DNA of 64,000 nt, taken from the NCBI RefSeq assembly GCF_044324875.1, contig NZ_CP172187.1; one strand, written 5' to 3'. Below, piece after piece: positions 15,460 through 61,598 of the stretch. The DNA comes from Escherichia coli. GTDB lineage: Bacteria; Pseudomonadota; Gammaproteobacteria; Enterobacterales; Enterobacteriaceae. The notes below the pieces were generated by a model, which ran no database searches, had not been told where the DNA came from, and saw only the letters and a list, made by a program, of their open reading frames with translations. The translations under genes and the position numbers were made by a program. Numbering within the stretch: position 1 is the stretch's first letter; each line of letters opens with the position of its first letter.

Positions 15460-17205
<1,746 letters not shown>

Positions 17206-38597: not shown

Positions 38598-38863
38598 CTA
38601 ATAACTGAATCCACACACAGTCAAATGTCATTATTGTGACTAAAAAACGCTCAATTCTCTGAGGGTGTGGCTGTATGCCTGCTGTGGACTGCTGTGTCCA
38701 GCTTATCCACAGCATTTTGCGCACGGTTCTGTGAATAAAATACCTGGTTACCCAGGCCGTGCCGGCACGTTAACCGGGCTGCATCCAATGCAAGTGTGTC
38801 GCTGTCGCCGGCATCCTCACCAGGTCACTCAGCAGTCAGGGAGAAAAATGGCGGATGAAGTAT

Positions 38864-39217
38864 GACGGAGACGGTCGGGCAAGTGCCCGTTTCTTTTCCG
38901 ACAAAGGATGTCGCCGTGCTCCTCTTTTTACTGCGCCGGCTGACGCGGCGCGGCATAAACGCTGCCTGTGGTCAGTGTCCCGCGTCCGGCGGGCACGGGA
39001 CGGGCGCTTTTACCGCTCCCGGCTGGCGTCGGTGACAGTGTACGCCAGCCCGTCGCCCTTTTCTGATGAACGCCCTTCAAGCCGCTTTCGCGGCATAGCC
39101 TTGCCGTCAAAAAGACGACGGCTGCGGTATTCCACGGTCGGCCTGACCCGTTACCGGACGCGGTGAACAGCCCACAGGCAGCGGGGAACGGGCACCACAG
39201 GGGGGCCCTCCCGGTGC
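38864..39217 (+). repeat. Leading-region GC-rich repeat, family A copy 1 (354 bp)
   Basis: Near-identical to 40169-40522; immediately upstream of a gene start. Confidence 0.75.
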
Positions 39218-39221
39218 TCCT

Positions 39222-40163
39222 GTGAGGAGAATTCCCATGCCAAACTGGTGCTCAAATCGTATGTATTTTTCTGGTGAACCAGCACAGATCGCTGAGATTA
39301 AACGACTGGCCAGCGGTGCAGTCACACCGCTTTATCGCCGCGCCACAGATGAAGGTATTCAGCTGTTTCTGGCCGGTAGTGCCGGACTTCTGCAGACCAC
39401 TGAAGATGTGCGGTTTGAACCATGCCCCGGACTGACGGCTGCCGGACGTGGTGTTGTATCGCCGGAGAATATCGCGTTCACCCGCTGGCTGACACACCTG
39501 CAGAACGGTGTGCTACTGGATGAAAAAAACTGCCTGATGCTGCATGAACTCTGGCTGCAGAGTGGTACTGGCCAGCGTCGCTGGGAAGGATTACCGGATG
39601 AGGTCAGGGAAAGCATCACCGTGCATTTCACCGCCAAAAGAGGTAACTGGTGTGGCTTCTGGAGTAACGAGGATGTATCGGTGTGGTGGAACCGTCTGTG
39701 TGACAATGTACTGCCGGAAAAAACCATGCCGTTTGACCTGCTGACGGTTCTGCCCACCCGCCTGGATGTTGAAGTGAATGGCTTTAACGGTGGTGTTCTG
39801 AACGGTGTTCCTTCTGCGTATCACTGGTATACGGAACAGTATGGCGTGAAGTGGCCTGTGGGGTATGAGGTGAATATCAGCAGTCAGGGAGACAACTTCA
39901 TTCAGGTTGATTTCGACACGCCGTGGTGTCAGCCGGAAAGCGACGTTATTGCAGAATTAAGCCGCCGTTTCAGTTGCACACTGGAGCACTGGTATGCCGA
40001 GCAGGGCTGCAATTTCTGTGGCTGGCAGCGATATGAGCGTGGAGAGCTTGTTGATGTCCTGTGGGGGGAATTGGAATGGTCTTCCCCGACAGATGACGAT
40101 GAGCTGCCGGAAGTCACCGGACCTGCGTGGATTGTCGACAAGGTGGCGCATTACGGTGGATGA
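39222..40163 (+). CDS. Hypothetical leading-region protein (313 aa, Trp/Cys-rich)
   Basis: Good RBS GAGGAG; sits between the two family A repeats. Confidence 0.5.
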   Translation: MRRIPMPNWCSNRMYFSGEPAQIAEIKRLASGAVTPLYRRATDEGIQLFLAGSAGLLQTTEDVRFEPCPGLTAAGRGVVSPENIAFTRWLTHLQNGVLLDEKNCLMLHELWLQSGTGQRRWEGLPDEVRESITVHFTAKRGNWCGFWSNEDVSVWWNRLCDNVLPEKTMPFDLLTVLPTRLDVEVNGFNGGVLNGVPSAYHWYTEQYGVKWPVGYEVNISSQGDNFIQVDFDTPWCQPESDVIAELSRRFSCTLEHWYAEQGCNFCGWQRYERGELVDVLWGELEWSSPTDDDELPEVTGPAWIVDKVAHYGG

Positions 40164-40168
40164 ATTCT

Positions 40169-40522
40169 GACGGAGACGGGCGGGCAACCGCCCGTTTCTT
40201 TTCCGACAAAGGATGTCGCCGTGCTCCTCTTTTTACTGCGCCGGCTGACGCGGCGCGGCATAAACGCTGCCTGTGGTCAGTGTCCCGCGTCCGGCGGGCA
40301 CGGGACGGGCGCTTTTACCGCTCCCGGCTGGCACCGGTGACAGTGTACGCCAGCCCGTCGCCCTTTTCTGATGAACGCCCTTCAAGCCGCTTTCGCGGCA
40401 TAGCCTTGCCGTCAAAAAGACGACGGCTGCGGTATTCCACGGTCGGCCTGACCCGTTACCGGACGCGGTGAACAGCCCACAGGCAGCGGGGAACGGGCAC
40501 CACAGGGGTGCCCTCCCGGTGC
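40169..40522 (+). repeat. Leading-region GC-rich repeat, family A copy 2 (354 bp)
   Basis: Near-identical to 38864-39217. Confidence 0.75.
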
Positions 40523-40546
40523 CTTCTGTAAGAGAAGGAGGCTTTT

Positions 40547-41230
40547 ATGTCCCGTTTTATCCTGGGTGACTGCGTGCGAGTTATGGCCACGTTTCCGGAC
40601 AATGCTGTCGATTTCATCCTCACCGACCCGCCGTATCTCGTCGGTTTCCGTGACCGTTCCGGGCGCACCATTGCCGGTGACGTTAACGATGACTGGTTGC
40701 AACCTGCCAGCAATGAGATGTACCGCGTACTCAAAAAAGACGCTCTGTTGGTCAGCTTCTACGGCTGGAACCGTATTGACCGCTTTATGGCGGCCTGGAA
40801 ACGCGCCGGATTCAGCGTGGCAGGGCACCTCGTGTTCACCAAAAACTACACATCCAAATCTGCGTATGTCGCGTACCGCCACGAATGCGCCTACATCCTG
40901 GCAAAAGGCCGTCCACGTCTGCCACAAAACCCGCTGCCGGACGTGCTGGGCTGGAAATATTCGGGCAATCGTCATCACCCGACGGAAAAGCCTGTTACCA
41001 GCCTGCAACCGCTGATTGAGAGCTTCACACACCCGAACGCAATTGTGCTGGACCCGTTTGCAGGCAGCGGCTCAACCTGCGTTGCCGCCCTCCAGTCCGG
41101 ACGCCGGTATATCGGTATCGAGCTGCTTGAGCAGTATCACCGTGCCGGACAGCAACGACTGGCTGCCGTTCAACGGGCCATGCAGCAGGGGGCCGCGAAT
41201 GATGACTGGTTTATGCCGGAGGCTGCGTAA
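40547..41230 (+). CDS. Orphan DNA methyltransferase (amino-methyltransferase with DPPY motif)
   Basis: 227 aa; FILTDPPYLVGF motif and C-terminal AdoMet motif VLDPFAGSGSTCVAA; no adjacent restriction enzyme. Confidence 0.75.
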   Translation: MSRFILGDCVRVMATFPDNAVDFILTDPPYLVGFRDRSGRTIAGDVNDDWLQPASNEMYRVLKKDALLVSFYGWNRIDRFMAAWKRAGFSVAGHLVFTKNYTSKSAYVAYRHECAYILAKGRPRLPQNPLPDVLGWKYSGNRHHPTEKPVTSLQPLIESFTHPNAIVLDPFAGSGSTCVAALQSGRRYIGIELLEQYHRAGQQRLAAVQRAMQQGAANDDWFMPEAA

Positions 41231-41452
41231 ATGAACTATGCCGGACACGAAAAACTTCGCGCCGAAGTGGCGGAGGTGGCCAACACCATGTGTGACCTTC
41301 GGGCCAGGCTGAACGATATGGAGCATCGCTGTCGTTTTGATTCCGATGTGCTTGTTGAACGCCTGACACGCCAGACGCTGTATCGCGCCAATCGCCTGTT
41401 TATGGAGGCGTATACCGAAATTCTTGAACTGGATGCGTGCTTCAAAGATTAA
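41231..41452 (+). CDS. Hypothetical small leading-region protein
   Basis: 73 aa, start directly after methyltransferase stop. Confidence 0.4.
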   Translation: MNYAGHEKLRAEVAEVANTMCDLRARLNDMEHRCRFDSDVLVERLTRQTLYRANRLFMEAYTEILELDACFKD

Positions 41453-41464
41453 GGGGGAGACGAA

Positions 41465-41899
41465 ATGTACGGAACATGCGAAACACTCTGCCGGGAGCTG
41501 GCAGCGCAGTATCCGGGAGACACGCCGCTGATGCTGGTTGTCTGGTCCCCGGAAGAGATTCAGGCACTGGCTGACGGTATGGAAATTTCTCTGACCGATC
41601 ATGAAATCAGGACCGTCCTGTCGCGCCTGGAGGACATCCCGGAAGACCAGCGGAGTGAATCCGGTATTTCTTCTGCCGCTGCGATGGAGATTATCAGCAA
41701 CGTGAGCGAAAACCGCCAGGTGACCGTCCCTGCTGAACTGCTGGCGTCCCTGATTCAGACCGCCGAACAGGCACTGTGGAAACGTGAATGGGCCGCCCGT
41801 GATAACGGCCTTGCCGTCCCGGAATGTGTTACCCGCCGTCAGGCAGTGATTAATCAGGCCCGCACCCTGCTGAAAAACAACACACACGAAAACAACTGA
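41465..41899 (+). CDS. Hypothetical leading-region protein (paralog of the 43376 ORF)
   Basis: 144 aa; shares RQVTVPAELL / RHVTVPAMML segment with 43376-43798. Confidence 0.5.
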   Translation: MYGTCETLCRELAAQYPGDTPLMLVVWSPEEIQALADGMEISLTDHEIRTVLSRLEDIPEDQRSESGISSAAAMEIISNVSENRQVTVPAELLASLIQTAEQALWKREWAARDNGLAVPECVTRRQAVINQARTLLKNNTHENN

Positions 41900-42013
41900 T
41901 GTTATCGCCGCCTGCCCTCTGCCATTCAGAGACTGACCGGAACCGGGGCGGAACTGGTACTGTCCGGCAGTCAGTGGCAGTCGCTGCCGGTACTTCCGGC
42001 AGACGGAACGCAG

Positions 42014-42487
42014 GTGTCTTTCCCGTATGCCGGAGAATGGCTGACCGAAGACGAAATCAGGGCTGTTCTTGATGCGGTGCACGATGCGGTACGAAGCATC
42101 TGTTACCAGGTGGCAGAAGATACGCGGCGTATCCGTGCGGCGCTGACCACCACCGGTCAGACGTTGCTGACCCGCCAGACGCGCCGCTTTCGCCTGGTCG
42201 TGAAGGAAAGCGATCATCCCTGCTGGCTCGATGAAGATGACGAAAACCTGCCCGTAGTGCTCGATGTCATCGTGAACCGGGGCGCACGTTTTTCGGCAGT
42301 GGAAATGTACCTGGTCAGCGATTGTATTGAGCATATCCTGTCCAGTGGGCTGGCCTGCGATGTGCTGCGTATACCGGATGAACCGCCCCGCCGCTGGTTT
42401 GACCGTGGTGTTCTGCGGGAGGTGGTCCGGGAAGCCCGGACCGAAATCCGCAGCATGGCGGATGCCCTGGCAAAAATCCGTAAATGA
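42014..42487 (+). CDS. Hypothetical leading-region protein
   Basis: 157 aa, same strand and operon context. Confidence 0.45.
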
Positions 42488-42903
42488 TGACACTGGCGGG
42501 GTAAATCCCCGCCTTTTTCCTGCCGGTCCCCGGACAGAGCACAAAGGAAGTCGCCGCCGGCTCCGCTTTACCCGGCCATGCGGGGCATGGCCTTGTGGAT
42601 TTTCAGTTATGTGGCCTCAGCGTCGTGTGCGGGCTGTGCCGTGCCTCCATCGTAGCCGGGCTTCTGCGGGCGGGTTGCAAGGTAAGGTGAACCGCTGCGG
42701 TCACCCGGTCCCTCCTTCCCGTCTGCCGTGATTTTCCGGTCGTTCACCCGCTCAGATTTCGCGGTCTCACCCTCCAACTCCCGCCAGCCGTGTGCGTCAG
42801 GCTGCGGCTTCCCTTGCGCCCTTGCAACCCTGCAGGCCCGGCAAAGATGGAGGCACGGCACCGCCCGGTGTCGCGGAATATGTGAACAACGGAGGAAAAC
42901 ATC

Positions 42904-43329
42904 ATGCAATATGCGAAACCTGTCACTCTGAATGTTGAAGAGTGCGACCGTCTGTTTTTTCTGCCTTACCTGTTTGGCCAGGATTTTCTGTATGCCGAGG
43001 CATCTGTGTACGCGCTGGCGAAAAAAATGATGCCGGAATATGACGGCGGATTCTGGCACTTCATCCGCCTGCCGGACGGTGGCGGTTACATGATGCCGGA
43101 TGGCGACCGTTTTCATCTGGTCAACGGTGAAAACTGGTTTGACCGTACGGTCAGCGCCGATGCCGCAGGCATCATTGTGACTTCCCTTGTGATTAACCGT
43201 CAGTTGTGGCTGTACCACGACAGCGGTGATGCAGGACTGACTCACCTGTACAGGATGCGCGATGCGCAGTTGTGGAGCCACATCGAATTTCACCCCGAAT
43301 GCAATGCGATTTACGCGGCACTGGACTGA
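42904..43329 (+). CDS. KlcA/ArdB-family antirestriction-like protein
   Basis: 141 aa; pattern FLPYLFG...[19 protein letters not shown]...[10 protein letters not shown]...NAIYAALD parallels RK2 KlcA. Confidence 0.65.
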
Positions 43330-43375
43330 TTAACGGACGGGGCGGCAATGCCGCCCCTGTAAAGGAGACGAGAAC

Positions 43376-43798
43376 ATGTACTGTACTGTTAAAGAAATTA
43401 TCCGCGAAGTGCTGGATACAGACGTGCCGGACAGTGAATGCGTTTTTGCCGTGGTGCTGACCCGTGGGGATGTGCGCCACATAGCTCAGGACTGGAGTCT
43501 GGCAGACGATGAGCTGGAAACCGTCATGCAGCGGCTGGACGATGCCTTTGAGCATGGTGCGGATGTCAGCGTTGTTCACGACGTTGTTCGTGAACTGATG
43601 GAAGAAAAGCGCGCCAGCCGTCATGTGACAGTCCCGGCGATGATGCTGGAAAAAGTGATGGCGCTGGCAGGCAGTGAAATGAAGCGCCTGTATGCCGTCG
43701 GAAGTGAGAACGGGGGCGACGGTGACGCATTCGTCAGGGAGGAACGCGAAGCAATGGACGTTGTGTTACAGGCGCTGGACGGGGAGACGATGTCATGA
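43376..43798 (+). CDS. Hypothetical leading-region protein (paralog of the 41465 ORF)
   Basis: 140 aa; paralogous segment with 41465-41899. Confidence 0.5.
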   Translation: MYCTVKEIIREVLDTDVPDSECVFAVVLTRGDVRHIAQDWSLADDELETVMQRLDDAFEHGADVSVVHDVVRELMEEKRASRHVTVPAMMLEKVMALAGSEMKRLYAVGSENGGDGDAFVREEREAMDVVLQALDGETMS

Positions 43799-43986
43799 AT
43801 ATCAGCACAGAAACCCGCGAAATTCTGCGTAATTACAGGGCCGTGATTAATGCGCGGCGTCGTGAAATGGGGCAGAAACCGCTCACCACCGCGCAGATTG
43901 TTGATGAAATCTGCGATTTTGTGGCGAATCAGCAGGCGGTTTTCCTGGGCGGTCACTACATCTTACAGGGCAGCAGAAACAGGTGA
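43795..43986 (+). CDS. Hypothetical small protein, translationally coupled
   Basis: 63 aa, ATGA overlap with upstream gene. Confidence 0.3.
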   Translation: MNISTETREILRNYRAVINARRREMGQKPLTTAQIVDEICDFVANQQAVFLGGHYILQGSRNR

Positions 43987-44183
43987 TACAGGGGCAGGCG
44001 GTGGAGGCCGCCTGTCAGCCCGCGCGAAAACCCCTGGCAGGCTGACGCCTGCCGGAAGGGAAGCGGGCCACGCTGGCGCGTCGCCCGTTACCCTTCCCGT
44101 CTGTGATGTGTCTGACTCAGGAGTGTTTCTTTCTTATGTTGCGGAACTGTTCCTGATGTTGTTGTTGTTCCTTTATCTGCTGC

Positions 44184-44788
44184 TCTGATTCTGACTACTG
44201 CAGTGTTGTTCTGTCTGCCGGGCGCACCTTCGGCTCCCGGCTGCCTGGCGGCATCCGGTCGTCAGGCCCGACTCCGACAGGCAGCTGCTGGCGCACCTGC
44301 CAGTCTCCGCCGAACCCGCTGGCGCGGCTTCGGGCTGCCGCTACGGTCCGATGCGTGAAAACCCCGGGCTTGCAGCGACCGTTCTGGTCGCGCCGCCTCT
44401 GTCGCGCCGTGGCCTGCGCTCCAGGCATCCCGGCAAAAAGACGCCGGGATGTAAGGCGCAACGCCGTTTCGCAAACCGCGCTTCACGTCGTTGCTGCGGG
44501 TCCCTGCTCATTGCCTGCCGGGTGCCACACACCCGTATGAGTCCCTGTCGCCGGGGGCATAGACAGCCACAACCTGCCGCACTGACTGTCCAGGGTAAAT
44601 GAACAGCCCACAAAATTTTTTACCCAAAACCCGGTAAAAAATTTTGCGTTCTGCCCAGGACAGGTGCGTCAGGCCGTGGCAGTGATGCCCCTTGCGGCGA
44701 AGGTTCTCAAACGGGTGAAGTTCATACCACAGGGAATACAGCAGCAGGTTCCCGCGAAACGTCAAAACCGCGGCTCCCGAAACTCAAC
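44184..44788 (+). repeat. Leading-region GC-rich repeat, family B copy 1 (about 605 bp), candidate ssDNA promoter (Frpo-like)
   Basis: Near-identical copies at 47544-48147 and 55606-56210, each immediately upstream of a gene. Confidence 0.7.
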
Positions 44789-45027
44789 GGGTGATGTTCT
44801 TTAAAAATCAGGATTTATTTCAGGCTCCGGCAATACGCATTTATGTGTTCTGTCAGTCATCCGGCTGGCAGGTAATGAGAACGCAGGAACAGAAGGAGGA
44901 AAACACCGGAGAACGTCAGACGCAGATATGAAAAAAGCAGGCCGGGGAGGACCTGCTTAATCCACACCGCAAAAACTGTTCGAGCAGTTTCTGCGGTTCC
45001 ATTCAACAGTCATAAGGAGTTTCATTT

Positions 45028-45258
45028 ATGACGGTAAGTATTGTTTCACCTTCCGCAGCGGCTGTAAAGCCCCGCCGTCATCCCCGTTTCAGACGCGAAG
45101 ACATCCCCGCGCCGGAAATTGACCCCGTGCTGAAAGCCTTCGGGCGACACATAGCCCGGAGTTTTCACCGGGGGCGTGGTGTACACATCCCCGCCATGAA
45201 AAACACGGCCTTCGGGCAGGTGCTCCGCACACTCGAACTGAAACGCGCTTTTAACTGA
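45028..45258 (+). CDS. Hypothetical small protein
   Basis: 76 aa with strong AAGGAG RBS. Confidence 0.4.
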   Translation: MTVSIVSPSAAAVKPRRHPRFRREDIPAPEIDPVLKAFGRHIARSFHRGRGVHIPAMKNTAFGQVLRTLELKRAFN

Positions 45259-45309
45259 TGAGGTGAGCCGCCCCGCGAGGGGCGGCAACAGATGGAAGGA
45301 GAACATTTT

Positions 45310-46671
45310 ATGACATTAGCAGCAATCACCATGACCGCCCCGGAAGCCGCCAACCCTGTGCAGATGTACCGCGCGACCTACTCACCGGATGACAACAAAC
45401 TGCGCCTGTATGCCGCGTCACGTCTTGACCCGGAGACGTATAAAAAAGTGCATGATGCCGGTTTTCGCTGGGCACCCAAACAGGCGCTGTTTGTCGCGCC
45501 AGCCTGGACACCGGGCCGGGAAGACGTGCTCCTCTCACTTGCCGGAGAGATTGAGGATGAAGACAGCACGCTCGCTGAACGTCAGGAAGCACGGGCGGAG
45601 CGGTTTACCGGATACAGCGGAAAGCGGGCCAGTGAATCCGCACAGGCACTTGATGAAGTGGAAAGACTGGCCGCGATGATCCCGCCCGGTCAGCCCATTC
45701 TTGTGGGGCATCACAGCGAACGCCGCGCCCGTCGTGATGCGCAGCGTATTGAAAACGGCATGAAACGTGCCGTGATGCTCTTTGAGCGTGCGGAATACTG
45801 GGAGGAGCGGGCGCGGTCGGCACTGCTTCACGCGAAGTATAAAGAACGCCCGGACGTTCGCTGGCGTCGTATCAAAAAAATCGAAGCGGATTTGCGCAAG
45901 GCTGAAAAGACCATCGCGCAGTCGCAGAAATATCTGACGATGTGGCGGGCTGAATCGCTGGATCTGAATATGGCAAAACTCATCAGCAGTCATGACCATA
46001 TCAGCGCCTGTTTCCCGCTGGACAGGTATCCGCGCCCGGCAGAAAAAAGCCAGTATGAAGGAAGTCGATCGTTATGGTCGGCCCTGGATGATGACATCAT
46101 CACCACGGAGCAGGCCCGCGAAATTGCGATCCGCTGTCATGAACGGCAGATTCAGCATCAACAACGCTGGGTTAACCACTATCATAACCGCCTGATCTAT
46201 GAGCGTGCCATGCTGGACGAAAGCGGCGGCGTGGTTACCCGGACACAGGATTTTGAGCCGGGCGGACAGGTTTTCAGCCGGGGCGAGTGGCTGACCATCA
46301 TCCGCGTGAACAAAAGCAACGGGGCGGTGAGTTCAGTCACAACGCCGAATTACAGTTTTCTCGGGTACAGCGGCACGATGAAAGTGACACCCGATCGCAT
46401 CACGGACTACAAAGCACCATCGGCAGAAGAGGCTGCCGTCGCCAGTCAGGCCGCGAAGCGTCCGCCGGTAGTCAACTATCCGGGGGAAGGTTTCCGGGAA
46501 ATGACAAAGGCGCAGTGGGCCGCCCTGCCCCGGGACTGTAAGGCCGTGCGCAGTGTGGCAGAGACAGAAGACCACGGGGCATACCGCTACCGCCGCACAA
46601 TGGACAATAATTTCCGCCTGGTGAATGTGTATATCACTGACATGAAAATCACGGAAATCCCACAGAAATAA
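45310..46671 (+). CDS. Hypothetical leading-region protein (453 aa, possibly DUF3560-like)
   Basis: Long ORF with AGGAG RBS before MTLAAITMTAPEA; family assignment from memory only. Confidence 0.5.
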   Translation: MTLAAITMTAPEAANPVQMYRATYSPDDNKLRLYAASRLDPETYKKVHDAGFRWAPKQALFVAPAWTPGREDVLLSLAGEIEDEDSTLAERQEARAERFTGYSGKRASESAQALDEVERLAAMIPPGQPILVGHHSERRARRDAQRIENGMKRAVMLFERAEYWEERARSALLHAKYKERPDVRWRRIKKIEADLRKAEKTIAQSQKYLTMWRAESLDLNMAKLISSHDHISACFPLDRYPRPAEKSQYEGSRSLWSALDDDIITTEQAREIAIRCHERQIQHQQRWVNHYHNRLIYERAMLDESGGVVTRTQDFEPGGQVFSRGEWLTIIRVNKSNGAVSSVTTPNYSFLGYSGTMKVTPDRITDYKAPSAEEAAVASQAAKRPPVVNYPGEGFREMTKAQWAALPRDCKAVRSVAETEDHGAYRYRRTMDNNFRLVNVYITDMKITEIPQK

Positions 46672-46717
46672 GGTATATCCCCCCGGGAAATCCCCGGGGG
46701 ATGACGGAGATAATGAC

Positions 46718-47281
46718 ATGCACAGTCAGTTAAGAGAACGTATCCGGCTGATGCGCGCAAGGCTGGATAACGCCGCGCCGGTTGCTGAAATCCGGGCTGA
46801 ATCTCAGCTTTTTGTGACTCCTGCCCCGGTCTGTGATCGCCTGGTGACGCTGGCGGAAATCAGCAACCGTGATCACATTCTGGAACCCTCTGCCGGCACC
46901 GGGGCCATACTGCTGGCGATTCGGGATACCGCGCCGGAGGCCATGTGTGATGCGGTGGAGATTAACAGCGGGCTGGTCCGGTATCTGCGGGAAAATTTTA
47001 ACGGTGTCAGGGTACAGTGTGGCGACTTCATGGAATGGCAGCCGGTGCAGTATTACAGCCGGATCATTATGAATCCGCCGTTCAGTCACGGGCAGGATAT
47101 CCGGCATATCCTGCGGGCTTTTTCCCTGTTGCGTCCGGGGGGCGTTCTGGTTGCCGTCTGTCTCAACGGGCCGCGCCAGCAGGAGAAGCTGTTACCGTTT
47201 TCTGACGTCCGCGAGGAGCTGCCGCGCGGCACGTTTGCTTATACCGATGTCCCGACGATGATTATTCGTTTGCGTGCCTGA
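46718..47281 (+). CDS. Small SAM-dependent methyltransferase (NPPF motif), putative orphan DNA methylase
   Basis: 187 aa; ILEPSAGTGAILLAI AdoMet motif and IIMNPPFS catalytic motif. Confidence 0.65.
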   Translation: MHSQLRERIRLMRARLDNAAPVAEIRAESQLFVTPAPVCDRLVTLAEISNRDHILEPSAGTGAILLAIRDTAPEAMCDAVEINSGLVRYLRENFNGVRVQCGDFMEWQPVQYYSRIIMNPPFSHGQDIRHILRAFSLLRPGGVLVAVCLNGPRQQEKLLPFSDVREELPRGTFAYTDVPTMIIRLRA

Positions 47282-47460: not shown

Positions 47461-47526
47461 CTGCTACTGCTACTGCTACTGCTACTGCTACTGCTACTGC
47501 TACTGCTACTGCTACTGCTACTGCTC
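47461..47526. repeat. Hexanucleotide tandem repeat (CTGCTA)x11
   Basis: Perfect 66-bp array; absent from the corresponding position in the other two family B copies. Confidence 0.85.
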
Positions 47527-47543
47527 TTCTTTTTCCTGCTGCT

Positions 47544-48147
47544 CTGATTCTGACTACTGCAGTGTTGTTCTGTCTGCCGGGCGCACCTTCGGCTCCCGGC
47601 TGCCTGGCGGCATCCGGTCGTCAGGCCCGACTCCGACAGGCAGCTGCTGGCGCACCTGCCAGTCTCCGCCGAACCCGCTGGCGCGGTTTCGGGCTGCCGC
47701 TACGGTCCGATGCGTGAAAACCCGGCTTGCAGCGACCGTTCCGGTCGCGCCGCCCCTGTCGCGCCGTGACCTGCGCTCCAGGCATCCCGGCAAAAAGACG
47801 CCGGGATGTAAGGCGCAACGCCGTTTCGCAAACCGCGCTTCACGTCGTTGCGGCGGGTCCCTGCCCGTTGTTGTGTCCGGTGCCATTCACCTGTTTAAGC
47901 CCCTGTCGCCGGGGGCTGATACAGCCACAACCTGCCGCACTGACTGTCCAGGGTAAATGAACAGCCCACAAAATTTTTTACCCAAAACCCGGTAAAAAAT
48001 TTTGCGTTCTGCCCAGGACAGGTGCGTCAGGCCGTGGCAGTGATGCCCCATGCGGCGAAGGTTCTCAAACAGGTGATGGTGAATACCGGAGGGAACAAAG
48101 AGCAGGTCCCCGCAAAACGTCAAAACCGCGGCTCCCGAAACTCAACA
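47544..48147 (+). repeat. Leading-region GC-rich repeat, family B copy 2, immediately upstream of ssb
   Basis: Near-identical to 44184-44788 and 55606-56210. Confidence 0.7.
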
Positions 48148-48187
48148 GATGATGGGGGCTGAAAACATCAACAGAAGGAGACACATC

Positions 48188-51100
48188 ATGGCAGTTCGTG
48201 GCATTAACAAGGTCATTCTTGTCGGTGTGCGCCGTTGAAGCGCGGTGTTTTATGGAGTGTTGCCTGAAAAGCAACATGGCTTAGTGGTATAGCCATTGCA
48301 TACTGTGGTTAGCCTTGCTTGGTAACAGGCTCGGAGATCCTGAAAAGGAGAGGTGAACATAGCATCCACAGAAAAGGGTGGTGAATATGGAAATCGTTAT
48401 AAGTATCACCATTCAATGCAAGATGTATATGGATAAACTGGGTTTGTTGAAGTCGAGATCTATGTGGGAAACAGGAAACCAATAACGCAGAACGATTGAA
48501 GCGTTATTCCCGTACTAGCACAAGAAATCCGTCCGACGTTGATTGTGACCACTCTAACGGGCCAGCTATTGATGAAATAGTTAAACGATCGAAAGACATC
48601 CTAAGTACATCGCATCTCCACACCGTGAAACTACGGGACTACCTAAACTGGATTTATACCCAGCATGGTAGCGGAGTCTCCATAGTACTCAAGGTCGGCC
48701 TGTAATGGGTTCCGGCAGTCCGCATTATACGGAAGCAGCAAAGGTATAAATCAACCGGAAGGAAGATGAAAGCCTCACAGTGCTGCGGGGAAGGGAGACA
48801 GTTGTTAGATACATCAATCTCTAAGAGGAGGGTTAGCCAATGCTGCCTGATGAACTTGAGAAAAGATTAGATGGAATTGAGGATGCTTCAAAAAAAGGGT
48901 ATCCAGTACGTAATCTATACAAAATTGCGTGTGAGCCCGGACTGTGGCTGCAAGCCTACGTGAATATACGGGCCAATGCAGGTGCACTGACTCAAGGTGT
49001 ATCAACAGATACCATTGATGGCTTTTCTATCGAAAGAGCAGAGAAGCTGGCAAAAACATTGCGGAGTAGAGAATACGTAGCGAAACCTGTACGCAGAGTT
49101 CAGATCCCAAAAAAGGACGGAAAAACCAGACCGCTGGGGATTCCAGGTGGAGACGATAAACTGGCGCAAGAAGTAGCAAGAATTATTCTGGAAAGGGTTT
49201 ATGAACCAGTATTCTCTGAACACTCTCATGGATTCAGACCAAAACGTTCGTGTGAAACTGCGCTCAGATCTATTCGTCCAGTCTGGAACGGAGTTAAATG
49301 GATCGTGGATGTTGATATCAAAGGTTTCTTTGACAATATCCCCCACAAACTATTGCTGAATACACTGGCAGAGAAAATTAAGGATAAGAATTTCCTGAAA
49401 TTAATCGAACAGTGGCTGAAGGCAGGATATGTGGACAATTGGAAATACCATCGCTCATATTCTGGCACGCCACAAGGTGGGATAATTTCTCCCTTACTGG
49501 CAAATATATACCTCGACAAACTGGACCGTTTTGTAGAACAGAATTTAATTCCTGCATATACAAGCGGTACAAAACGAAGAGCGAATCCAGATATGAACAG
49601 GCTGGCCCATAAGATTCATAAACTACGAAAGAAAGTAGACGGTATGGCAACTGATTCTGAATCAGAAAAAGAAGCCATAAAGAAAGAAATTGAACGACTG
49701 CTTGAAGAAAAACGTTCTATACCATCTCAGGTCATGAACGATCCAAACTTCAGGCGTATGTACTATGTTCGATATGCTGATGACTTCGTAATCGGTGTCA
49801 TCGGCTCGAAGAAAGATGCTGAACATATATCAAGACAGGTCAGAAACTTTATTACTACTTCACTGGGATTGGAAGTTAATGAAGCAAAGACCAGGATCCG
49901 CCATATCTCAGAAGGAGTTAATTTTTTAGGCTATGAAATCAGACAGGCAGATGCAAAGAAATTGCTGAAGCAGAAAATGCAAGGGCGGCACGCTCTCCGG
50001 AGATCCACCACAGGAATTGTGCAGCTCTTCGTTCCTGACAATATAGCCGCTAAATTTTGTCACCAAAAGAAATATGGCTGTTATGAGAATGTGAAGGCTG
50101 TACATCGTTCAAGTCTACAAAATCTCAGTGAAGCTGAAATTGTTCTGACTTTCAACGCGGAAATGCGCGGATTGGCGAACTACTACAGTCTGGCGCTGGA
50201 CATGAAATATAAATTATCAAAATTATATTTCATATGGCAAATAAGCCTTTTTAAGACCCTGGCGAATAAACGACGTAGTTCAGTGAATAAAGTCGCCAAA
50301 TCGCTACGGCAAAATAATGGAGATCTGGCTATTACCGTTCAGGCCAAAAATGGATCCCGAAAGATTGAGGTTTTCAAACTCAAACATGTCAATCGCAACC
50401 GAACAACGATTGTCGATACGGAACCGAGAACCGCACATATCACAACCCGCACAACAGAGATCATGCGTCGATTAGGGGCAAGGATCTGCGAGTATTGTGC
50501 GAAGACTGGGCGCTGCGAAGTACATCATGTCAGAAAGCTAAAAGACCTGAAGAAAGGTCGTAAGGCCGGATATAAACCCAGCTTGTGGCAACTAATGATG
50601 ATCGCACGCCGCCGGAAAACGATGATTTTGTGCGCAAGTTGCCACGACAAGTTACATAGCGGAAAACTACCCGATTTGAGACAGGAAAAGGGAAGAATAC
50701 TCCTGCAACCACCTGTCTCAAGCGGGGATTCTGCTAAATGAGTTTATCCCCAATAAGCTAGCAATGGAGAGCCGTATGCACTGAAAGGTGCACGTACGGT
50801 TCGGAGGGGGGGTAACGGTGATCTAACTCAAGATAAGCAGGACATATTCGCCATTTATCTTGAAAGACCACACGTACCCTACCCTACCGTCTGGGAAAAG
50901 ATCCGGAAGTCCGTTACATCCCAAACGGGGGCGCAGTGGCAAACCTGCAGGTGGCCACGTCAGAAAGCTGGCGCGACAAACAGACGGGGGAGATACGGGA
51001 GCAGACAGAATGGCATCGCGTGGTGCTGTTCGGCAAGCTCGCGGAAGTGGCTGGTGAGTATCTGCGCAAGGGCGCGCAGGTCTACATCGAAGGTCAGCTT

Positions 51101-51376
51101 CGCACCCGTAGCTGGGAGGATAACGGTATCACCCGTTACGTCACCGAAATTCTTGTTAAGACCACGGGCACCATGCAGATGCTGGGACGTGCCGCAGGTA
51201 CTCAGACTCAGCCGGAAGAGGCGCAACAGTTCAGCGGTCAGCCTCAGCCGGAATCACAGCCGGAACCGAAAAAAGGAGGCGCGAAAACGAAAGGCCGTGG
51301 ACGTAAGGCCGCGCAGCCGGAGCCTCAGCAGCCGTCTGAACCCGCGTATGACTTCGATGACGACATTCCGTTCTAA
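48188..51376 (+). CDS. ssb: Plasmid single-stranded DNA-binding protein Ssb, interrupted by a group II intron (exon 1 48188-48226, exon 2 50888-51376)
   Basis: Exon 1 [13 protein letters not shown]; exon 2 [35 protein letters not shown]...DDDIPF; joined frame gives a 175 aa SSB. Confidence 0.8.
48227..50887 (+). mobile_element. Group II intron (about 2.66 kb) inserted in ssb
   Basis: Starts GTGCG; domain V-like GAGCCGTATGCACTGAAAGGTGCACGTACGGTTC at ~50768; encodes RT/maturase/HNH protein in domain IV. Confidence 0.8.
48840..50741 (+). CDS. Group II intron-encoded protein: reverse transcriptase, maturase and HNH endonuclease domains
   Basis: 633 aa; RT motifs incl. [13 protein letters not shown]-terminal HNH/Zn motif [17 protein letters not shown]...CASCHDKLH. 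Confidence 0.85.
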   Translation: MLPDELEKRLDGIEDASKKGYPVRNLYKIACEPGLWLQAYVNIRANAGALTQGVSTDTIDGFSIERAEKLAKTLRSREYVAKPVRRVQIPKKDGKTRPLGIPGGDDKLAQEVARIILERVYEPVFSEHSHGFRPKRSCETALRSIRPVWNGVKWIVDVDIKGFFDNIPHKLLLNTLAEKIKDKNFLKLIEQWLKAGYVDNWKYHRSYSGTPQGGIISPLLANIYLDKLDRFVEQNLIPAYTSGTKRRANPDMNRLAHKIHKLRKKVDGMATDSESEKEAIKKEIERLLEEKRSIPSQVMNDPNFRRMYYVRYADDFVIGVIGSKKDAEHISRQVRNFITTSLGLEVNEAKTRIRHISEGVNFLGYEIRQADAKKLLKQKMQGRHALRRSTTGIVQLFVPDNIAAKFCHQKKYGCYENVKAVHRSSLQNLSEAEIVLTFNAEMRGLANYYSLALDMKYKLSKLYFIWQISLFKTLANKRRSSVNKVAKSLRQNNGDLAITVQAKNGSRKIEVFKLKHVNRNRTTIVDTEPRTAHITTRTTEIMRRLGARICEYCAKTGRCEVHHVRKLKDLKKGRKAGYKPSLWQLMMIARRRKTMILCASCHDKLHSGKLPDLRQEKGRILLQPPVSSGDSAK

Positions 51377-55329: not shown

Positions 55330-55605
55330 CAACCTGGAGGCGGGCGCAGGCCCGCCTTTTCAGGACTGATGCTGGTCTGACTACTGAAGCGCCTTTATAA
55401 AGGGGCTGCTGGTTCGCCGGTAGCCCCTTTCTCCTTGCTGATGTTGTACGGGCATGAACAACCTGACTTCAGGAAGGTCGTTTCCCTTCAGGAACGGGGA
55501 TGAACGCGCGCCTGCGGCGCCCGTTCTTTTCCCCCGCCTTCTCTGGTTATGGCCTGTCAGAAATCACATCACCTTCCCTGTGATTATTCTCTTTTTCTTC
55601 CTGCT

Positions 55606-56210
55606 CTGATTCTGACTACTGCAGTGTTGTCCTGTCTGCCGGCGCACCTTCGGCTCCCGGCTGCCTGGCGGCATCCGGTCGTCAGGCCCGACTCCGACAG
55701 GCAGCTGCTGGCGCACCTGCCAGTCTCCGCCGAACCCGCTGGCGCGGTTTCGGGCTGTCGCTACGGTCCGATGCGTGAAAACCCCGGGCTTGCAGCGACC
55801 GTTCCGGTCGCGCCGCCTCTGTCGCGCCGTGGCCTGCGCTCCTGGCATCCCGGCAAAAAGACGCCGGGATGTAAGGCGCAACGCCGTTTCGCAAACCGCG
55901 CTTCACGTCGTTGCTGCGGGTCCCTGCCCGTTGTTGTGTCCGGTGCCATTCACCTGTTTAAGCCCCTGTCGCCGGGGGCTGATACAGCCACAACCTGCCG
56001 CACTGACTGTCCAGGGTAAATGAACAGCCCACAAAATTTTTTACCCAAAACCCGGTAAAAAATTTTGCGTTCTGCCCAGGACAGGTGCGTCAGGCCGTGG
56101 CAGTGATGCCCCATGCGGCGAAGGTTCTCAAACAGGTGATGGTGAATACCGGAGGGAACAAAGAGCAGGTCCCCGCAAAACGTCAAAACCGCGGCTCCCG
56201 AAACTCAACA
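55606..56210 (+). repeat. Leading-region GC-rich repeat, family B copy 3
   Basis: Near-identical to copies 1 and 2. Confidence 0.7.
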
Positions 56211-56249
56211 GATGATGGGGGCTGAAAACCAGAGAGAGGAGAAAGCTGG

Positions 56250-58339: not shown

Positions 58340-58700
58340 TCAACAGGTTGGTGGTTCTCACCACCAAAAGCACCACACACTACGCAAAAACAAGTTTTTG
58401 CTGATTTGCCACTTGAATCATTAACTTATGTTTTAAATAATGTATTTTAATTTATTTTACATTATAAAAAGGATTCATTGGTGAATCGCATATGATTCAC
58501 CAATGAATTTAACACAACTCATAGATGAATCAGTAATAATAAAACAACGAGTTAAAGCGAATTGACTCTAGATTCAATTCGTGATGTGATTTGCTGCATG
58601 AATCGTAATTTTCGTAACTTGCGTCACGATTCGATTCATCGATGAATTGTCATTTTTTTATATGTGAAATAAATTTGATGCGATAAGAAAATAAAGAGGT
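58340..58700. other. oriT: Origin of transfer oriT (nick region near 58360-58370 on the minus strand, plus TraM/TraY/IHF binding region)
   Basis: Reverse complement contains TTTTTGCGTAGTGTGTGGTGCTTTTGGTGGTGAGAACCACCAAC, the F/R100-type nick region. Confidence 0.65.
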
Positions 58701-58706
58701 ATACAT

Positions 58707-59090
58707 ATGGCGAAAGTGCAGGCTTATGTCAGTGACGAAATTGTCTATAAAATAAATAAAATTGTGGAAAGAAGACGTGCAGAAGGAGCTAAAAGTACAG
58801 ATGTAAGTTTCTCAAGCATATCCACTATGCTTCTCGAATTAGGGCTTCGTGTATATGAGGCTCAGATGGAGCGTAAAGAGTCAGCGTTCAATCAGGCTGA
58901 GTTTAATAAGGTGCTTCTTGAATGTGCGGTAAAAACACAGTCAACAGTTGCTAAGATTTTAGGTATTGAGTCACTAAGCCCTCATGTTTCCGGGAATCCA
59001 AAGTTTGAATATGCGAATATGGTCGAAGATATCAGGGAGAAGGTGTCATCTGAGATGGAGAGGTTCTTTCCAGAAAATGATGAGGATTAA
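58707..59090 (+). CDS. traM: Relaxosome protein TraM
   Basis: 127 aa MAKVQAYVSDEIVYKINKIVERRRAEGAK... Confidence 0.9.
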   Translation: MAKVQAYVSDEIVYKINKIVERRRAEGAKSTDVSFSSISTMLLELGLRVYEAQMERKESAFNQAEFNKVLLECAVKTQSTVAKILGIESLSPHVSGNPKFEYANMVEDIREKVSSEMERFFPENDED

Positions 59091-59283
59091 AAAAGAATTA
59101 AAAGTTGATTTGCTTCAAATAACAGGATTTTGATCTGGTTCAATTTGATGACAATTAACCGCATAAAGGTTATATTAATTACGTGGTTAATGCCACGTTA
59201 AAAATTGAAACTGAAAATCGCCGATGCAGGGAGTTCAGACCTCCCTGCATCGACTGTCCATAGAATCCTTAACGGAGGTTCCT

Positions 59284-59970
59284 ATGTGTGCGCTGGATCG
59301 TAGAGAAAGGCCACTTAACAGTCAATCTGTAAATAAATACATCCTTAACGTTCAGAATATCTACAGAAATTCTCCCGTTCCGGTTTGTGTCCGTAACAAA
59401 AACCGGAAAATCCTTTATGCCAATGGGGCTTTTATTGAACTCTTTTCCAGAGAAGATAAACCCTTATCCGGAGAGAGTTATATACGTCTGCAGGTTGAAA
59501 TTTTTCTTTCATCACTTGAACTGGAATGCCAGGCTCTTGGACATGGCTCTGCATTTTGTCGTCGTTTTAATTTTCATGGCGAAATCTATCAGATAAGGAT
59601 GGAGAATGTTTCTTTTTATAATGACGAATCTGTTGTTTTATGGCAAATTAATCCGTTTCCTGATTATCCATTTTTTGCGTTAAATCAGAGTGGAAGTAAT
59701 ACAAATACTTCTGATAAATTAACGATATGGAATGATCTTTCTCCAGGGACATTGGTTGTTTTCTCTTTTTATATGCTGGGTGTTGGTCACGCAACAATTG
59801 CCAGAGAGTTGGGTATTACAGACAGAGCATCTGAGGATCGAATTAAACCAGTTAAACGGAAAATAAAAGAATTTTTTGAACACTTTGATTTATTCAGAGT
59901 GTCATGTATCTATAAAGGAGAAATAGATTCGCTATTAAGTATAATTCGTGAATTTTATAGTATTAAGTAA
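59284..59970 (+). CDS. traJ: Transfer operon activator TraJ (track ORF starts at 59224)
   Basis: Position between traM and traY; AT-rich codon usage typical of traJ. Confidence 0.7.
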
Positions 59971-59981
59971 ATGTTAAATAA

Positions 59982-60010
59982 GGCACGCCAATTTTGGCGT
60001 GTTTTTTTTC
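59982..60010 (+). terminator. Rho-independent terminator after traJ
   Basis: GGCACGCCAATTTTGGCGTG hairpin followed by T8. Confidence 0.55.
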
Positions 60011-60063
60011 GTCGGTTTCTGTGCAATCATGATTTTATTAGTCAGGAAACAGAGGTGAATTGA

Positions 60064-60291
60064 GTGAGGAGGCGTAACGCGAGAGGCGGGATAAGCAGAA
60101 CAGTCTCAGTGTATCTCGATGAAGATACAAATAACCGACTTATTCGGGCCAAAGATCGTAGCGGTAGAAGTAAAACTATAGAGGTTCAGATCCGTCTCAG
60201 AGATCATCTGAAACGGTTTCCTGATTTCTATAATGAAGAAATATTCAGGGAGGTGATCGAAGAGAACGAGTCAACATTTAAAGAACTTTAG
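60064..60291 (+). CDS. traY: Relaxosome accessory protein TraY (GTG start)
   Basis: 75 aa RHH protein. Confidence 0.8.
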   Translation: MRRRNARGGISRTVSVYLDEDTNNRLIRAKDRSGRSKTIEVQIRLRDHLKRFPDFYNEEIFREVIEENESTFKEL

Positions 60292-60324
60292 TTTTTATCT
60301 ATCAATATTAAACAGAGGAATCAT

Positions 60325-60684
60325 ATGAATACTGTTTTAAGTGTTCAGGGTGCTTCTGCGCCTGTTGAAAAGAAATCGTTTTTTTCTAAATTCACTCGTC
60401 TGAATATGCTTCGCCTGGTTCGCGCAGTGATCCCGGTTGCTGTTCTGATGATGTTCTTCCCGCAACTGGCAATGGCAGCACAGGGCCAGGACCTGATGCA
60501 GAGTGGTAACTCCACGGTTAAGGCGACCTTCGGTAAGGACTCCAGTGTTGTTAAATGGGTTGTTCTGGCTGAAGTTCTGGTCGGTGCTGTCATGTACATG
60601 ATGACCAAAAACGTCAAGTTCCTGGCCGGTTTTGCCATCATCTCTGTATTTATTGCTGTGGGTATGGCCGTCGTTGGCCTCTGA
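60325..60684 (+). CDS. traA: Propilin TraA (F-type pilin)
   Basis: [31 protein letters not shown]...[19 protein letters not shown]. Confidence 0.9.
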
Positions 60685-60698
60685 CAGGAAATAAAACG

Positions 60699-61010
60699 AT
60701 GTCGGGAGACGAGAATAAACTTAAGAAATATCGTTTCCCGGAAACACTGACCAACCAGAGCCGCTGGTTTGGCCTGCCACTGGATGAACTGATCCCCGCA
60801 GCAATCTGTGTTGGCTGGGGTATCACAACATCGAAATATCTGTTCGGTATTGGTGCAGCTGTTCTGGTTTATTTCGGGATTAAAAAACTGAAAAAAGGGC
60901 GGGGCAGTTCCTGGTTACGTGACCTGATTTACTGGTATATGCCAACAGCCCTGCTGCGCGGTATTTTTCATAATGTTCCCGATTCGTGTTTCCGGCAGTG
61001 GATTAAATAG
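60699..61010 (+). CDS. traL: Pilus assembly protein TraL
   Basis: Position and size in F-type tra operon. Confidence 0.8.
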
Positions 61011-61031
61011 AACTGATATCAGGATTGTTAT

Positions 61032-61598
61032 ATGGAACACGGTGCCCGTTTAAGTACCAGTCGTGTAATGGCCATCGCCTTTATATTTATGTCAGTGCTT
61101 ATTGTTCTCAGCCTCTCTGTTAACGTCATTCAGGGGGTGAATAACTACCGCCTTCAGAATGAGCAACGCACTGCCGTGACGCCAATGGCATTTAATGCCC
61201 CCTTTGCCGTGTCACAGAACAGTGCCGACGCCTCTTATTTACAGCAGATGGCGCTGTCATTTATTGCCCTCCGTCTGAATGTTTCATCAGAAACCGTCGA
61301 TGCCTCACATCAGGCGCTTCTGCAATATATCCGCCCGGGCGCACAGAACCAGATGAAAGTTATTCTGGCTGAAGAAGCGAAGCGTATTAAAAACGATAAC
61401 GTGAACTCAGCCTTTTTCCAGACCAGTGTTCGTGTCTGGCCTCAGTATGGCCGTGTGGAAATTCGTGGTGTGCTTAAAACCTGGATTGGTGATTCAAAAC
61501 CTTTCACTGATATCAAACATTACATCCTTATTCTGAAGCGGGAAAACGGGGTGACCTGGCTGGATAATTTCGGGGAAACAGACGATGAGAAAAAATAA
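61032..61598 (+). CDS. traE: Pilus assembly protein TraE
   Basis: 188 aa with N-terminal TM anchor. Confidence 0.85.

Follow-up and report, generated by a model that had tools for sequence, protein, structure and literature searches.

The region between positions 40547 and 47281 of a 64,000-nucleotide (nt) stretch of Escherichia coli DNA (RefSeq assembly GCF_044324875.1, contig NZ_CP172187.1; the whole 64-kb stretch is referred to here as the window) is very probably an establishment and anti-defence island within a conjugative plasmid's leading region, comprising three operons with transient activation in the recipient cell. Judged by sequence, each of the three lies behind a homologue of a known single-stranded DNA (ssDNA) promoter, of class 3, class 2 and Frpo (class 1) type, respectively. 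Operon A contains the genes for the methyltransferase MT1, YubE, a first DUF1380 paralogue (DUF1380a) and a truncated YchA; operon B those for KlcA, a second DUF1380 paralogue (DUF1380b) and a 63-amino acid (aa) protein (hp63); and operon C those for a 76-aa protein (hp76), a DUF3560 protein and a second methyltransferase, MT2. The evidence consists of the identities of the genes, their synteny and conservation, the hairpins upstream of the operons with their homology to known promoters, and the orphan status of both methyltransferases within the window. A preliminary description of this DNA had proposed a leading-region cluster of anti-defence functions here, and the nick site, the tra genes and the 93% identity of MT1 to its orthologue M.EcoGIX all agree with this. 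The open reading frames (ORFs) that it listed are all present on the + strand, with the coordinates used below, as are the DPPY motif at residues 27–30 of MT1 and the NPPF motif at residues 119–122 of MT2.

The host replicon is an F-like, IncFII-type conjugative plasmid of the MOBF group, with the cluster in the distal half of its leading region. At least 5000 plasmids in PLSDB match the 6.7-kb region and at least 3422 records span at least 80% of it. Nearly all of the matches are from Escherichia, Klebsiella, Salmonella and Shigella, and the majority are conjugative. Among the matches listed, the top relatives of the region are MOBF/MPF_F conjugative plasmids, with pTB-nb3 (MOBF/MPF_F) the highest at 99.4%.

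A nick sequence of the R100 type for the origin of transfer (oriT) was found by pattern match on the minus strand at 58367–58383, with GTAGTGTGT and GGTGCTTT on the two sides of the nick, which falls between 58375 and 58374; the nick point inside the motif is assumed from established knowledge of F-like oriT regions. With the SLT gene as reference, it occupies the position that the exact F nick sequence has in plasmid F. The genes traM, traJ, traY, traA, traL, traE, traK and traB are located at 58707–63740. The orientation of the nick site makes the minus strand the transferred strand (T-strand), entering the recipient from 58374 downwards. All of the genes of the cluster are on the + strand, therefore the transferred minus strand is their template. 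The distance from the cluster to the nick is 11.1–17.8 kb and, at the quoted transfer rate of ~46 kb/min (PMC12672017), the cluster would enter about 15–25 s after the start of transfer. It had been described as part of the first DNA to enter a recipient; it is early DNA, yet not the very first.

Two families of repeats punctuate the region. The first has three copies of ~650 nt (44163–44811, 47522–48169 and 55583–56232), which align with plasmid F sequences that precede ssb and the DUF932 operon and have cores that are 80–94% identical, identity to the Frpo ahead of ssb in F being 91–94%. These F sequences are the Frpo elements. The third such copy, ahead of hp76-DUF3560-MT2 (44163–44811, minus strand), is a candidate class 1 ssDNA promoter whose core shares 91.2% identity with the Frpo that precedes ssb in F. 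Its minus strand folds at -142 kcal/mol, with a z-score of -11.3 versus shuffled sequences. The next Frpo copy, upstream of ssb (47522–48169, minus strand), has a core 93.1% identical to the same F element and forms the right-hand boundary of the cluster. A hairpin of ~150 pairs is common to five Frpo copies, across which 6 of the 169 pairs in the consensus structure are kept through compensatory changes on both sides.

The second family consists of two direct repeats of 300 nt (38850–39149 and 40155–40454) that are 97% identical. The putative class 3 ssDNA promoter of the MT1 operon (40155–40546, minus strand) shares 96.1% identity with the sequence that precedes M.EcoGIX in pESBL and has a minus-strand fold of -110 kcal/mol (z-score -6.5 versus shuffled sequences). 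An extra class 3 element, 97.5% identical to the one upstream of MT1 and with its hairpin on the transferred strand, is present upstream of the DUF1281 (YubB) gene (38850–39221, minus strand). In pESBL there is unrelated sequence at the place of this extra copy, and only the copy upstream of the methylase is present. From this comparison DUF1281 seems to have gained an early promoter of its own here, via the second class 3 element. The putative class 2 promoter of the klcA operon (42520–42903, minus strand) contains a long hairpin at ~42633–42862. Its identity is 88.6% with the sequence ahead of klcA in pESBL and 86.5% with that ahead of ardA, and its minus-strand fold is also -110 kcal/mol (z-score -6.0 versus shuffled sequences).

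The ssDNA-dependent start sites of the class 3 element and of the class 2 elements (upstream of klcA and ardA) of pESBL, and those of the F Frpo, have been mapped by Wen et al., with 5' rapid amplification of cDNA ends for the class 3 region; their classification sets class 2 and class 3 alongside Frpo/ssi as class 1 (PMC12672017). Zygotic induction has been measured as well, with the transcripts of the KlcA and M.EcoGIX operons raised in F transconjugants (PMC12672017). A consensus scan found no + strand duplex σ70 promoter upstream of the three operons. This is weak negative evidence, and fits with the presence of ssDNA promoters. The MT1 operon ends at a terminator-like hairpin on the + strand (42495–42513; GGCGGGGTAAATCCCCGCC followed by TTTTT). 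ORFs of 103 aa (38855–39166) and 114 aa (40127–40471), and others that cover the Frpo copies, run within the promoter hairpins and were judged not to be genes; some of these hairpin-internal ORFs are annotated as hypothetical proteins in RefSeq. Directly upstream of the Frpo copy that precedes ssb there is a perfect (CTGCTA) x 10.8 microsatellite (47461–47525) after a pyrimidine-rich run, and plasmid F has a CTT-rich tract at the matching place.

MT1 (YubD/YfeA; 40547–41230, + strand, 227 aa) is the orthologue of M.EcoGIX, a beta-class DNA adenine methyltransferase without a target-recognition domain. It is 93% identical to pESBL M.EcoGIX over 227 of 227 aa and matches NCBIfam PRK13699 with 489 bits against a cutoff of 244. 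The DPPY motif precedes FAGSGST at residues 171–177, which is the beta-class order, and the relatives of MT1 among solved structures are CcrM, RsrI, DpnA and MboIIA. Its full-length similarity, its motif order, its position as an orphan leading-region gene with the T-strand as template, and the predicted ssDNA promoter in front of it place MT1, by sequence, in the M.EcoGIX family. According to Fomenkov et al., M.EcoGIX makes promiscuous, strand-asymmetric N6-methyladenine at SAY on the entering single strand, which gives an orientation-dependent block to restriction (PMC7736820). Plasmid transfer to EcoRI, EcoGIII and K. pneumoniae recipients is reduced when M.EcoGIX is deleted (PMC4288162). 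The methylation of SAY in ssDNA and the protection on entry have been shown for the pESBL and Burkholderia enzymes only (PMC7736820, PMC4288162).

No restriction nuclease is annotated beside either methyltransferase, on either strand, or elsewhere in the 64-kb window, where everything past 1–40546 belongs to the leading and tra regions. Within the visible window both methyltransferases thus appear to be orphans, in keeping with the earlier supposition that neither has a cognate nuclease. It is highly improbable that MT1 and/or MT2 instead supply the modification function of a restriction-modification system whose nuclease is encoded elsewhere on the plasmid. Only 64 kb of the plasmid is visible, and PADLOC puts the family of MT1 under its 'type II methyltransferase' models. 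However, both enzymes lack a target-recognition domain, and the minus-strand ORFs under the cluster have no match to any NCBIfam or PADLOC family; of these, the 490-aa ORF at 41072–42544 and seven others were taken to be chance ORFs in GC-rich DNA. No nuclease adjoins the MT1 block in F and pESBL, or the MT1 and MT2 blocks of the Salmonella and Paramixta loci. The Serratia locus has, directly upstream of the MT1 homologue, a 442-aa gene whose C-terminal part gives an endonuclease-like match (PF27227). For M.EcoGIX itself, orphan status and silence in established cells have been reported (PMC7736820).

The antirestriction protein of operon B, KlcA (YubI; 42904–43329, + strand, 141 aa), has a PF03230 match and is 93% identical to pESBL KlcA/ArdB, which bears out its earlier description as KlcA-like. 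Against solved structures it matches KlcA (2KMG) with E 1.8e-18 at residues 5–141, its full length, and ArdB (2WJ9) with E 7.5e-8, and it also matches phrog_10132, 'anti-restriction protein'. The profile and solved-structure matches over the whole length of ~140 aa identify it, on similarity, as a member of the KlcA/ArdB family. Homologues in this family are reported to alleviate type I restriction in vivo, with an effect that depends on the level of expression (PMC11602122).

Operon C is absent from both F and pESBL and present in thousands of IncF plasmids. Its methyltransferase, MT2 (YdcA-like; 46718–47281, + strand), is a 187-aa amino-methyltransferase core with a PF05175 match, and is likely to be a DNA adenine methylase that lacks sequence specificity. 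Conservation is seen at FVTP, EPSAGTG, an acidic residue that follows strand 2, GDF, NPPF and, at the end, LPRGTFxYTDV. These motifs follow the gamma-class order (X, I, II, III, IV to VIII), and the structural model has a Rossmann topology. The homologues of MT2 are uniformly 183–197 aa in length. MT2 ends at residue 187, a few residues past its last conserved motif, where M.TaqI has ~180 more. As this is where a target-recognition domain would begin, MT2 is a catalytic core only and not a conventional type II methyltransferase. M.TaqI is the top single-sequence match to MT2 among solved structures and also the structural match of highest identity, at 22–24%. The AlphaFold2 model of MT2 has a predicted local distance difference test (pLDDT) score of 86.7, and its Foldseek neighbours are M.TaqI, TrmN, PacII, HsdM and Dim1/Erm. 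PADLOC gives Mad2, a DNA methylase, as the best match (1e-20), with type II methyltransferases next in rank as far as 7e-11, and in PHROGs MT2 matches the DNA methyltransferase domains of 1200–3900-aa phage (polyvalent) proteins at 1e-30 to 1e-32.

It is unlikely that MT2 is an RNA or protein amino-methyltransferase, similar to Erm/KsgA, TrmN or PrmC, that reprograms the translation apparatus of the recipient. The best NCBIfam hits of MT2 are to Erm (2.9e-8), KsgA (2.6e-7) and PrmC (6.6e-7), all far under the cutoffs, and when solved structures are searched by profile, MJ0882, KsgA, Erm and HemK come out beside M.TaqI. TrmN, Dim1 and ErmE are among the Foldseek neighbours, there is no DNA-recognition domain, and some databases name MT2 homologues 'rRNA adenine N-6-methyltransferase family'. 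Against this, the DNA methyltransferase families in PHROGs and PADLOC match MT2 far better, and M.TaqI is ahead both as a single sequence and in structural identity. The gene also lies within an operon behind a predicted ssDNA promoter, among DNA-protecting genes, and M.EcoGIX, the characterised neighbour, likewise has no recognition domain.

The other two genes of operon C precede MT2. The first, hp76 (45028–45258, + strand), has TAAGGAG 7 nt upstream and encodes a very basic protein of 76 aa (isoelectric point 11.9) that is 68% identical in the Salmonella plasmid, with a ratio of non-synonymous to synonymous substitution rates (dN/dS) of 0.20. Relatives of hp76 with 42–46% identity are found nearer oriT in pESBL (L006, ~16075–16341) and in the Paramixta plasmid (L010, ~14451–14711). 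Since there are relatives elsewhere in leading regions, hp76 is part of a mobile small-protein family that is not specific to DUF3560-MT2. The DUF3560 protein (YdbA; 45310–46671, + strand, 453 aa) has three conserved modules. The mechanical ORF starts at 45292. However, there is an AAGGAG 7 nt before the ATG at 45310 and the public annotation also has the 453-aa form, therefore 45310 is the better start. The sole Pfam domain recognised is PF12083, at residues 95–212 (E 1e-36), and neither sequence nor profile searches found a relative among solved structures. DUF3560 is directly upstream of MT2 in three distant plasmids (Salmonella, Paramixta and Serratia). In a Pantoea-like plasmid DUF3560 is split into two genes and a 152-aa gene lies between DUF3560 and MT2. 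In all four of these plasmids the two have been kept together, with 56–74% identity. Between the hp76 and DUF3560 genes, at 45264–45288, there is a strong GC hairpin (GCCGCCCC GCGA GGGGCGGC) with no T-run, which may be an intra-operon RNA stabiliser or attenuator.

An antisense RNA gene of the AS-pc01 family (Rfam RF02875, 'antisense to pHK01_035') is located on the minus strand at 44932–45033, where it spans the start of hp76, including the start codon and the ribosome-binding site. It scores 89.7 bits against a gathering score of 79 and covers model positions 1–99 of 99. On the same strand there is a σ70-like promoter at 45068–45040 and a terminator at 44958–44935, and the first loop of the RNA is complementary to the start codon and the ribosome-binding site of hp76. 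The RNA is templated by the + strand, therefore it can be made only after synthesis of the complementary strand. AS-pc01 could in this way silence operon C once the plasmid is double-stranded.

Taken in order, events in the recipient would be as follows. The minus strand would enter 5' end first from the nick at 58375/58374, and each upstream element, on arrival, would fold on the single strand to give a long, imperfect hairpin in imitation of a duplex σ70 promoter. Host RNA polymerase could then transcribe the + sense genes off the single strand before the complementary strand exists. MT1 would methylate adenines promiscuously on the entering strand, so that the later duplex would be hemimethylated at many restriction sites. 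Operon A would also yield YubE, DUF1380a and a defective YchA. From operon B, KlcA would alleviate type I restriction in vivo, and would be made with DUF1380b and the 63-aa protein. MT2, from operon C, may act as a further adenine-N6 DNA methyltransferase that has no recognition domain, broadening or reinforcing the methyl protection, with DUF3560 possibly its substrate-binding partner. Expression would be shut off as the hairpins are lost on conversion to double-stranded DNA and, for operon C, additionally by AS-pc01 over the hp76 ribosome-binding site. A more elaborate version is possible but rather doubtful. Here operon C would be a self-contained second methylation module in which DUF3560 and/or hp76 recruit MT2 to the entering strand, giving a broad pattern of adenine methylation distinct from that of M.EcoGIX, with AS-pc01 as the off-switch and with the acidic DUF1380 paralogues as direct inhibitors of defence complexes.

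The smaller proteins of operons A and B are less easily assigned. YubE (YfcA; 41231–41452, + strand, 73 aa, PF27407 match) has a start codon that abuts the MT1 stop codon, and it is directly after the MT1 homologue in the F, pESBL, Salmonella, Paramixta and Serratia plasmids, with 52–96% identity and a dN/dS of 0.23. DUF1380a (YubF/YcgB; 41465–41899, + strand) is an acidic helical protein of 144 aa with a PF07128 match, and DUF1380b (YubJ/YcjA; 43376–43798, + strand) is a 140-aa protein with an isoelectric point of 4.4. The paralogy of the two that had been described earlier is confirmed by BLASTP, with 27% identity over 116 aa (E 3e-9). DUF1380b is also linked to the family by phrog_9024 and by homologues that sources name DUF1380. 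On sequence, both are stand-alone DUF1380/PF07128 proteins of ~140 aa. The start of the 63-aa protein (YubK-like; 43795–43986, + strand) overlaps the stop of DUF1380b. The F and pESBL versions are 98% identical to it and the version in the Salmonella plasmid 63% (dN/dS 0.28).

Relatives of DUF1380 number 150 among 1.84 billion cluster representatives. Many are fragments, the full-length ones being 133–163 aa. Nearly all stand alone, and the two longer ones (375 and 443 aa) match over the first 100–136 residues only. There are no invariant residues in the family, and the net charges of the paralogues here are -10 (a) and -17 (b). The predicted structure is all-helical (pLDDT 85), with structural neighbours that are only generic helical hairpins. 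In light of this fold, these neighbours and the lack of invariant residues, the label 'adenine-specific methyltransferase' that databases give to many DUF1380 members is not credible.

ORF 42014 (42014–42487, + strand) is a remnant of ychA/yubG, with the C-terminal 155 codons only. It aligns at 93% to residues 104–257 of the 258-aa YchA of pESBL, and a 234-bp deletion relative to F and pESBL has taken out the N-terminal third together with the start codon and the ribosome-binding site. It is probably a pseudogene. The deletion junction at 41908–41912 is within a short repeated motif (CGCCGCCT/CGCCGCTCCT), which suggests slippage or recombination between short repeats. Two plasmids that are 99.4% identical appear to share the deletion, as they match in one piece of about the query length; matches at 96% are ~230 bp longer. 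The seven uncharacterised ORFs at 41231, 41465, 42014, 43376, 43795, 45028 and 45310 had been put forward as candidates for novel anti-restriction or anti-CRISPR factors, and all but 42014 are real genes.

In comparison with a diverged Salmonella plasmid, the nine intact genes of the cluster are 46–86% identical, with dN/dS of 0.11–0.33, and are by this measure under purifying selection. For the small ORFs other than 42014 these values are 46–77% and 0.20–0.33, and the DUF1380 paralogues evolve fastest in the cluster (0.30–0.33). The small ORFs are also conserved across the related plasmids, and gene order is conserved in the Salmonella, Paramixta and Serratia plasmids. The annotation with hidden Markov models and structures that had been recommended identified MT1 and KlcA, but DUF1380 and DUF3560 had no informative structural relative and no PADLOC match; there was none in PADLOC for any of the small proteins. 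Position, orientation and conservation together make anti-defence roles plausible for them. There is close to an even chance, falling slightly short of it, that YubE, DUF1380a and b, hp63, hp76 and DUF3560 are instead establishment or housekeeping factors, such as operon regulators, helpers in complementary-strand synthesis, or modulators of the methyltransferases or of host physiology. YubE is always right after MT1 and DUF3560 always beside MT2, which would fit accessory roles, and the strongly basic nature of hp76 suggests nucleic-acid binding. However, known anti-defence genes are strongly enriched at exactly such positions (PMC11541004). The DUF1380 paralogues are acidic, fast-evolving and without invariant catalytic-type residues, which fits binding proteins in an arms race, and there is one DUF1380 copy in the methylase operon and another directly after klcA in F, pESBL and the Salmonella plasmid. 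Neither copy is present in Serratia, and only the first is present in Paramixta.

Several points weigh against the interpretation of the region as an anti-defence island. The activities on which it draws, namely protection by M.EcoGIX, the ssDNA promoters and KlcA, are all transferred here from homologues. The hairpins fold about equally well on both strands, therefore folding alone is no proof of promoter function. KlcA/ArdB activity is weak, and deletions of klcA/ardB had no detectable effect in pB10 and RIP113 (Dimitriu et al., PMC11602122). Operon C is missing from F and pESBL, which are the two plasmids that have been profiled zygotically, and to this may be added the matches of MT2 to Erm, KsgA, PrmC and MJ0882 given above. 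The family and structure searches made here tied YubE, DUF1380, hp63, hp76 and DUF3560 to no defence system, and the small proteins could serve in replication, SOS control or host reprogramming. The leading-region ParB-like protein YfjB is reported to reprogram the host (PMC13370423).

The island is flanked on the right by a group II intron, ssb, DUF905, a ParB-like gene, psiB, psiA, hok/sok, DUF932 and the SLT gene, after which come traM-J-Y-A-L-E-K-B. The ssb gene (48189–51376) is split after codon 13 by the group II intron, which is 2660 nt in length (48228–50887) and contains ltrA (48840–50741), encoding a 633-aa reverse transcriptase/maturase. Joining the ssb flanks restores VG-RLGK, exactly as in the ssb of F. 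As the gene is split, SSB would be made only after splicing, and since the intron is between the Frpo promoter and most of ssb, the earliest expression of SSB in the recipient should be delayed or reduced. Several Klebsiella and Salmonella plasmids have an ltrA intron at another site, within the 40547–47281 block.

On the left are dinI, umuDC, parA, a resistance region (Tn3/TEM-1, tetA, mer and a class 1 integron) and the IncFII repA. The DUF1281 gene (YubB/YfdA; 39222–40163, + strand) is immediate upstream context for the cluster. PF06924 and PF18406 match the same gene in two of the comparison loci (L003 and L005), and the protein is 93% identical to its pESBL counterpart. Its true start is probably the methionine of MPNWCSN at 39237. 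Positions 1–40546 of the window are near-identical to and colinear with p135-2 (NZ_CP080262.1), which MOB-suite types as IncK2/Z and MPF_I, and the part shared includes the IncFII repA and the resistance region as well as umuDC and DUF1281. From the methylase to MT2, the closest match is instead the IncF plasmid pTB-nb3. On these sequence relationships the window is a mosaic, with a junction near the class 3 promoter repeats.

The leading region decides the survival of a resistance plasmid in its first minute in a new host, and this window is a textbook case, in which a plasmid with mercury, tetracycline, TEM-1 and integron resistance carries the standard IncF/IncI1 protective block. The island itself is ordinary, already known and catalogued, and adds nothing beyond the catalogue of Samuel et al. 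2024. The candidates for novel factors are not novel, as their families are already listed there among the largest leading-region families. The value of the analysis is therefore in correct annotation, and current understanding is unchanged. Seven conserved leading-region genes remain of interest, those for YubE, the two DUF1380 proteins, hp63, hp76, DUF3560 and MT2. Of these, DUF3560 and MT2 as a pair offer the most tractable target, being present in thousands of clinical plasmids and absent from the model plasmids F and pESBL, which were used for all of the studies of expression and methylation.

The closest parallel for operons A and B is pESBL (IncI1; also R64), which has the same order of DinI, DUF1281, methylase, 73-aa protein, DUF1380, YchA, KlcA, DUF1380, 63-aa protein and ssb. 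The pESBL proteins are 79–98% identical to those here, and the class 3 and class 2 elements upstream of the methylase and klcA operons are 96% and 89% identical, respectively. YchA is full-length in pESBL and truncated here. Conversely, pESBL has neither the Frpo-hp76-DUF3560-MT2 operon nor the second class 3 element upstream of DUF1281. The ardA gene is present in pESBL, whereas there is none in this window between psiA and oriT.

Plasmid F has the same block from the methylase to the 63-aa protein, with 92–98% protein identity, and as here it has Frpo upstream of ssb and of the DUF932 operon and the nick motif in the same place. It has two Frpo copies rather than three, and lacks hp76, DUF3560 and MT2. 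The nick motif here is the R100 variant, unlike that of F, and it is the ssb gene here that carries the group II intron. The leading region of F (yubD to yubK; Frpo1 and Frpo2) was reportedly described by Manwaring in 1999 and by Masai and Arai in 1997. In lacking a recognition domain, MT1 and MT2 resemble other small amino-methyltransferases that are active on single strands or have no sequence specificity, such as DpnA of the DpnII system and the DarB-type methyltransferase domains of P1. DpnA and DarB-type enzymes protect incoming DNA, which provides a possible analogy for the enzymes here. MT2 is free-standing at 187 aa, whereas its phage counterparts are domains within giant proteins.

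Anti-defence islands in leading regions, with families enriched in the orientation that can be read from the T-strand, have been described by Samuel et al. (Nature 2024). Those islands contain orphan methyltransferases, KlcA/ArdA, SSB, PsiB/PsiA and toxin-antitoxin genes with Frpo-like elements upstream, and the same is seen here; no known anti-CRISPR gene was recognised in this window. For IncF plasmids, 'methylase, dam' and klcA have also been listed by Dimitriu et al. in R1 and pRK100 (PMC11602122). The supplementary table of Samuel et al. 2024 gives the 30 largest enriched families, with several uncharacterised candidates flagged. Of these, families 6–11, 14 and 26–28 correspond to genes in this window. 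They include the M.EcoGIX-type methylase (family 8), KlcA (9), YchA/YubG (10), YfcA/YubE (11), DUF1380 (7 and 14) and DUF1281 (27). Operon C is likewise represented, with the MT2-like methylase (K07317/K00561) as family 26, at a median position of 11 ORFs from oriT and next to DUF3560, and with DUF3560/YdbA itself as family 28, at a median position of 12.

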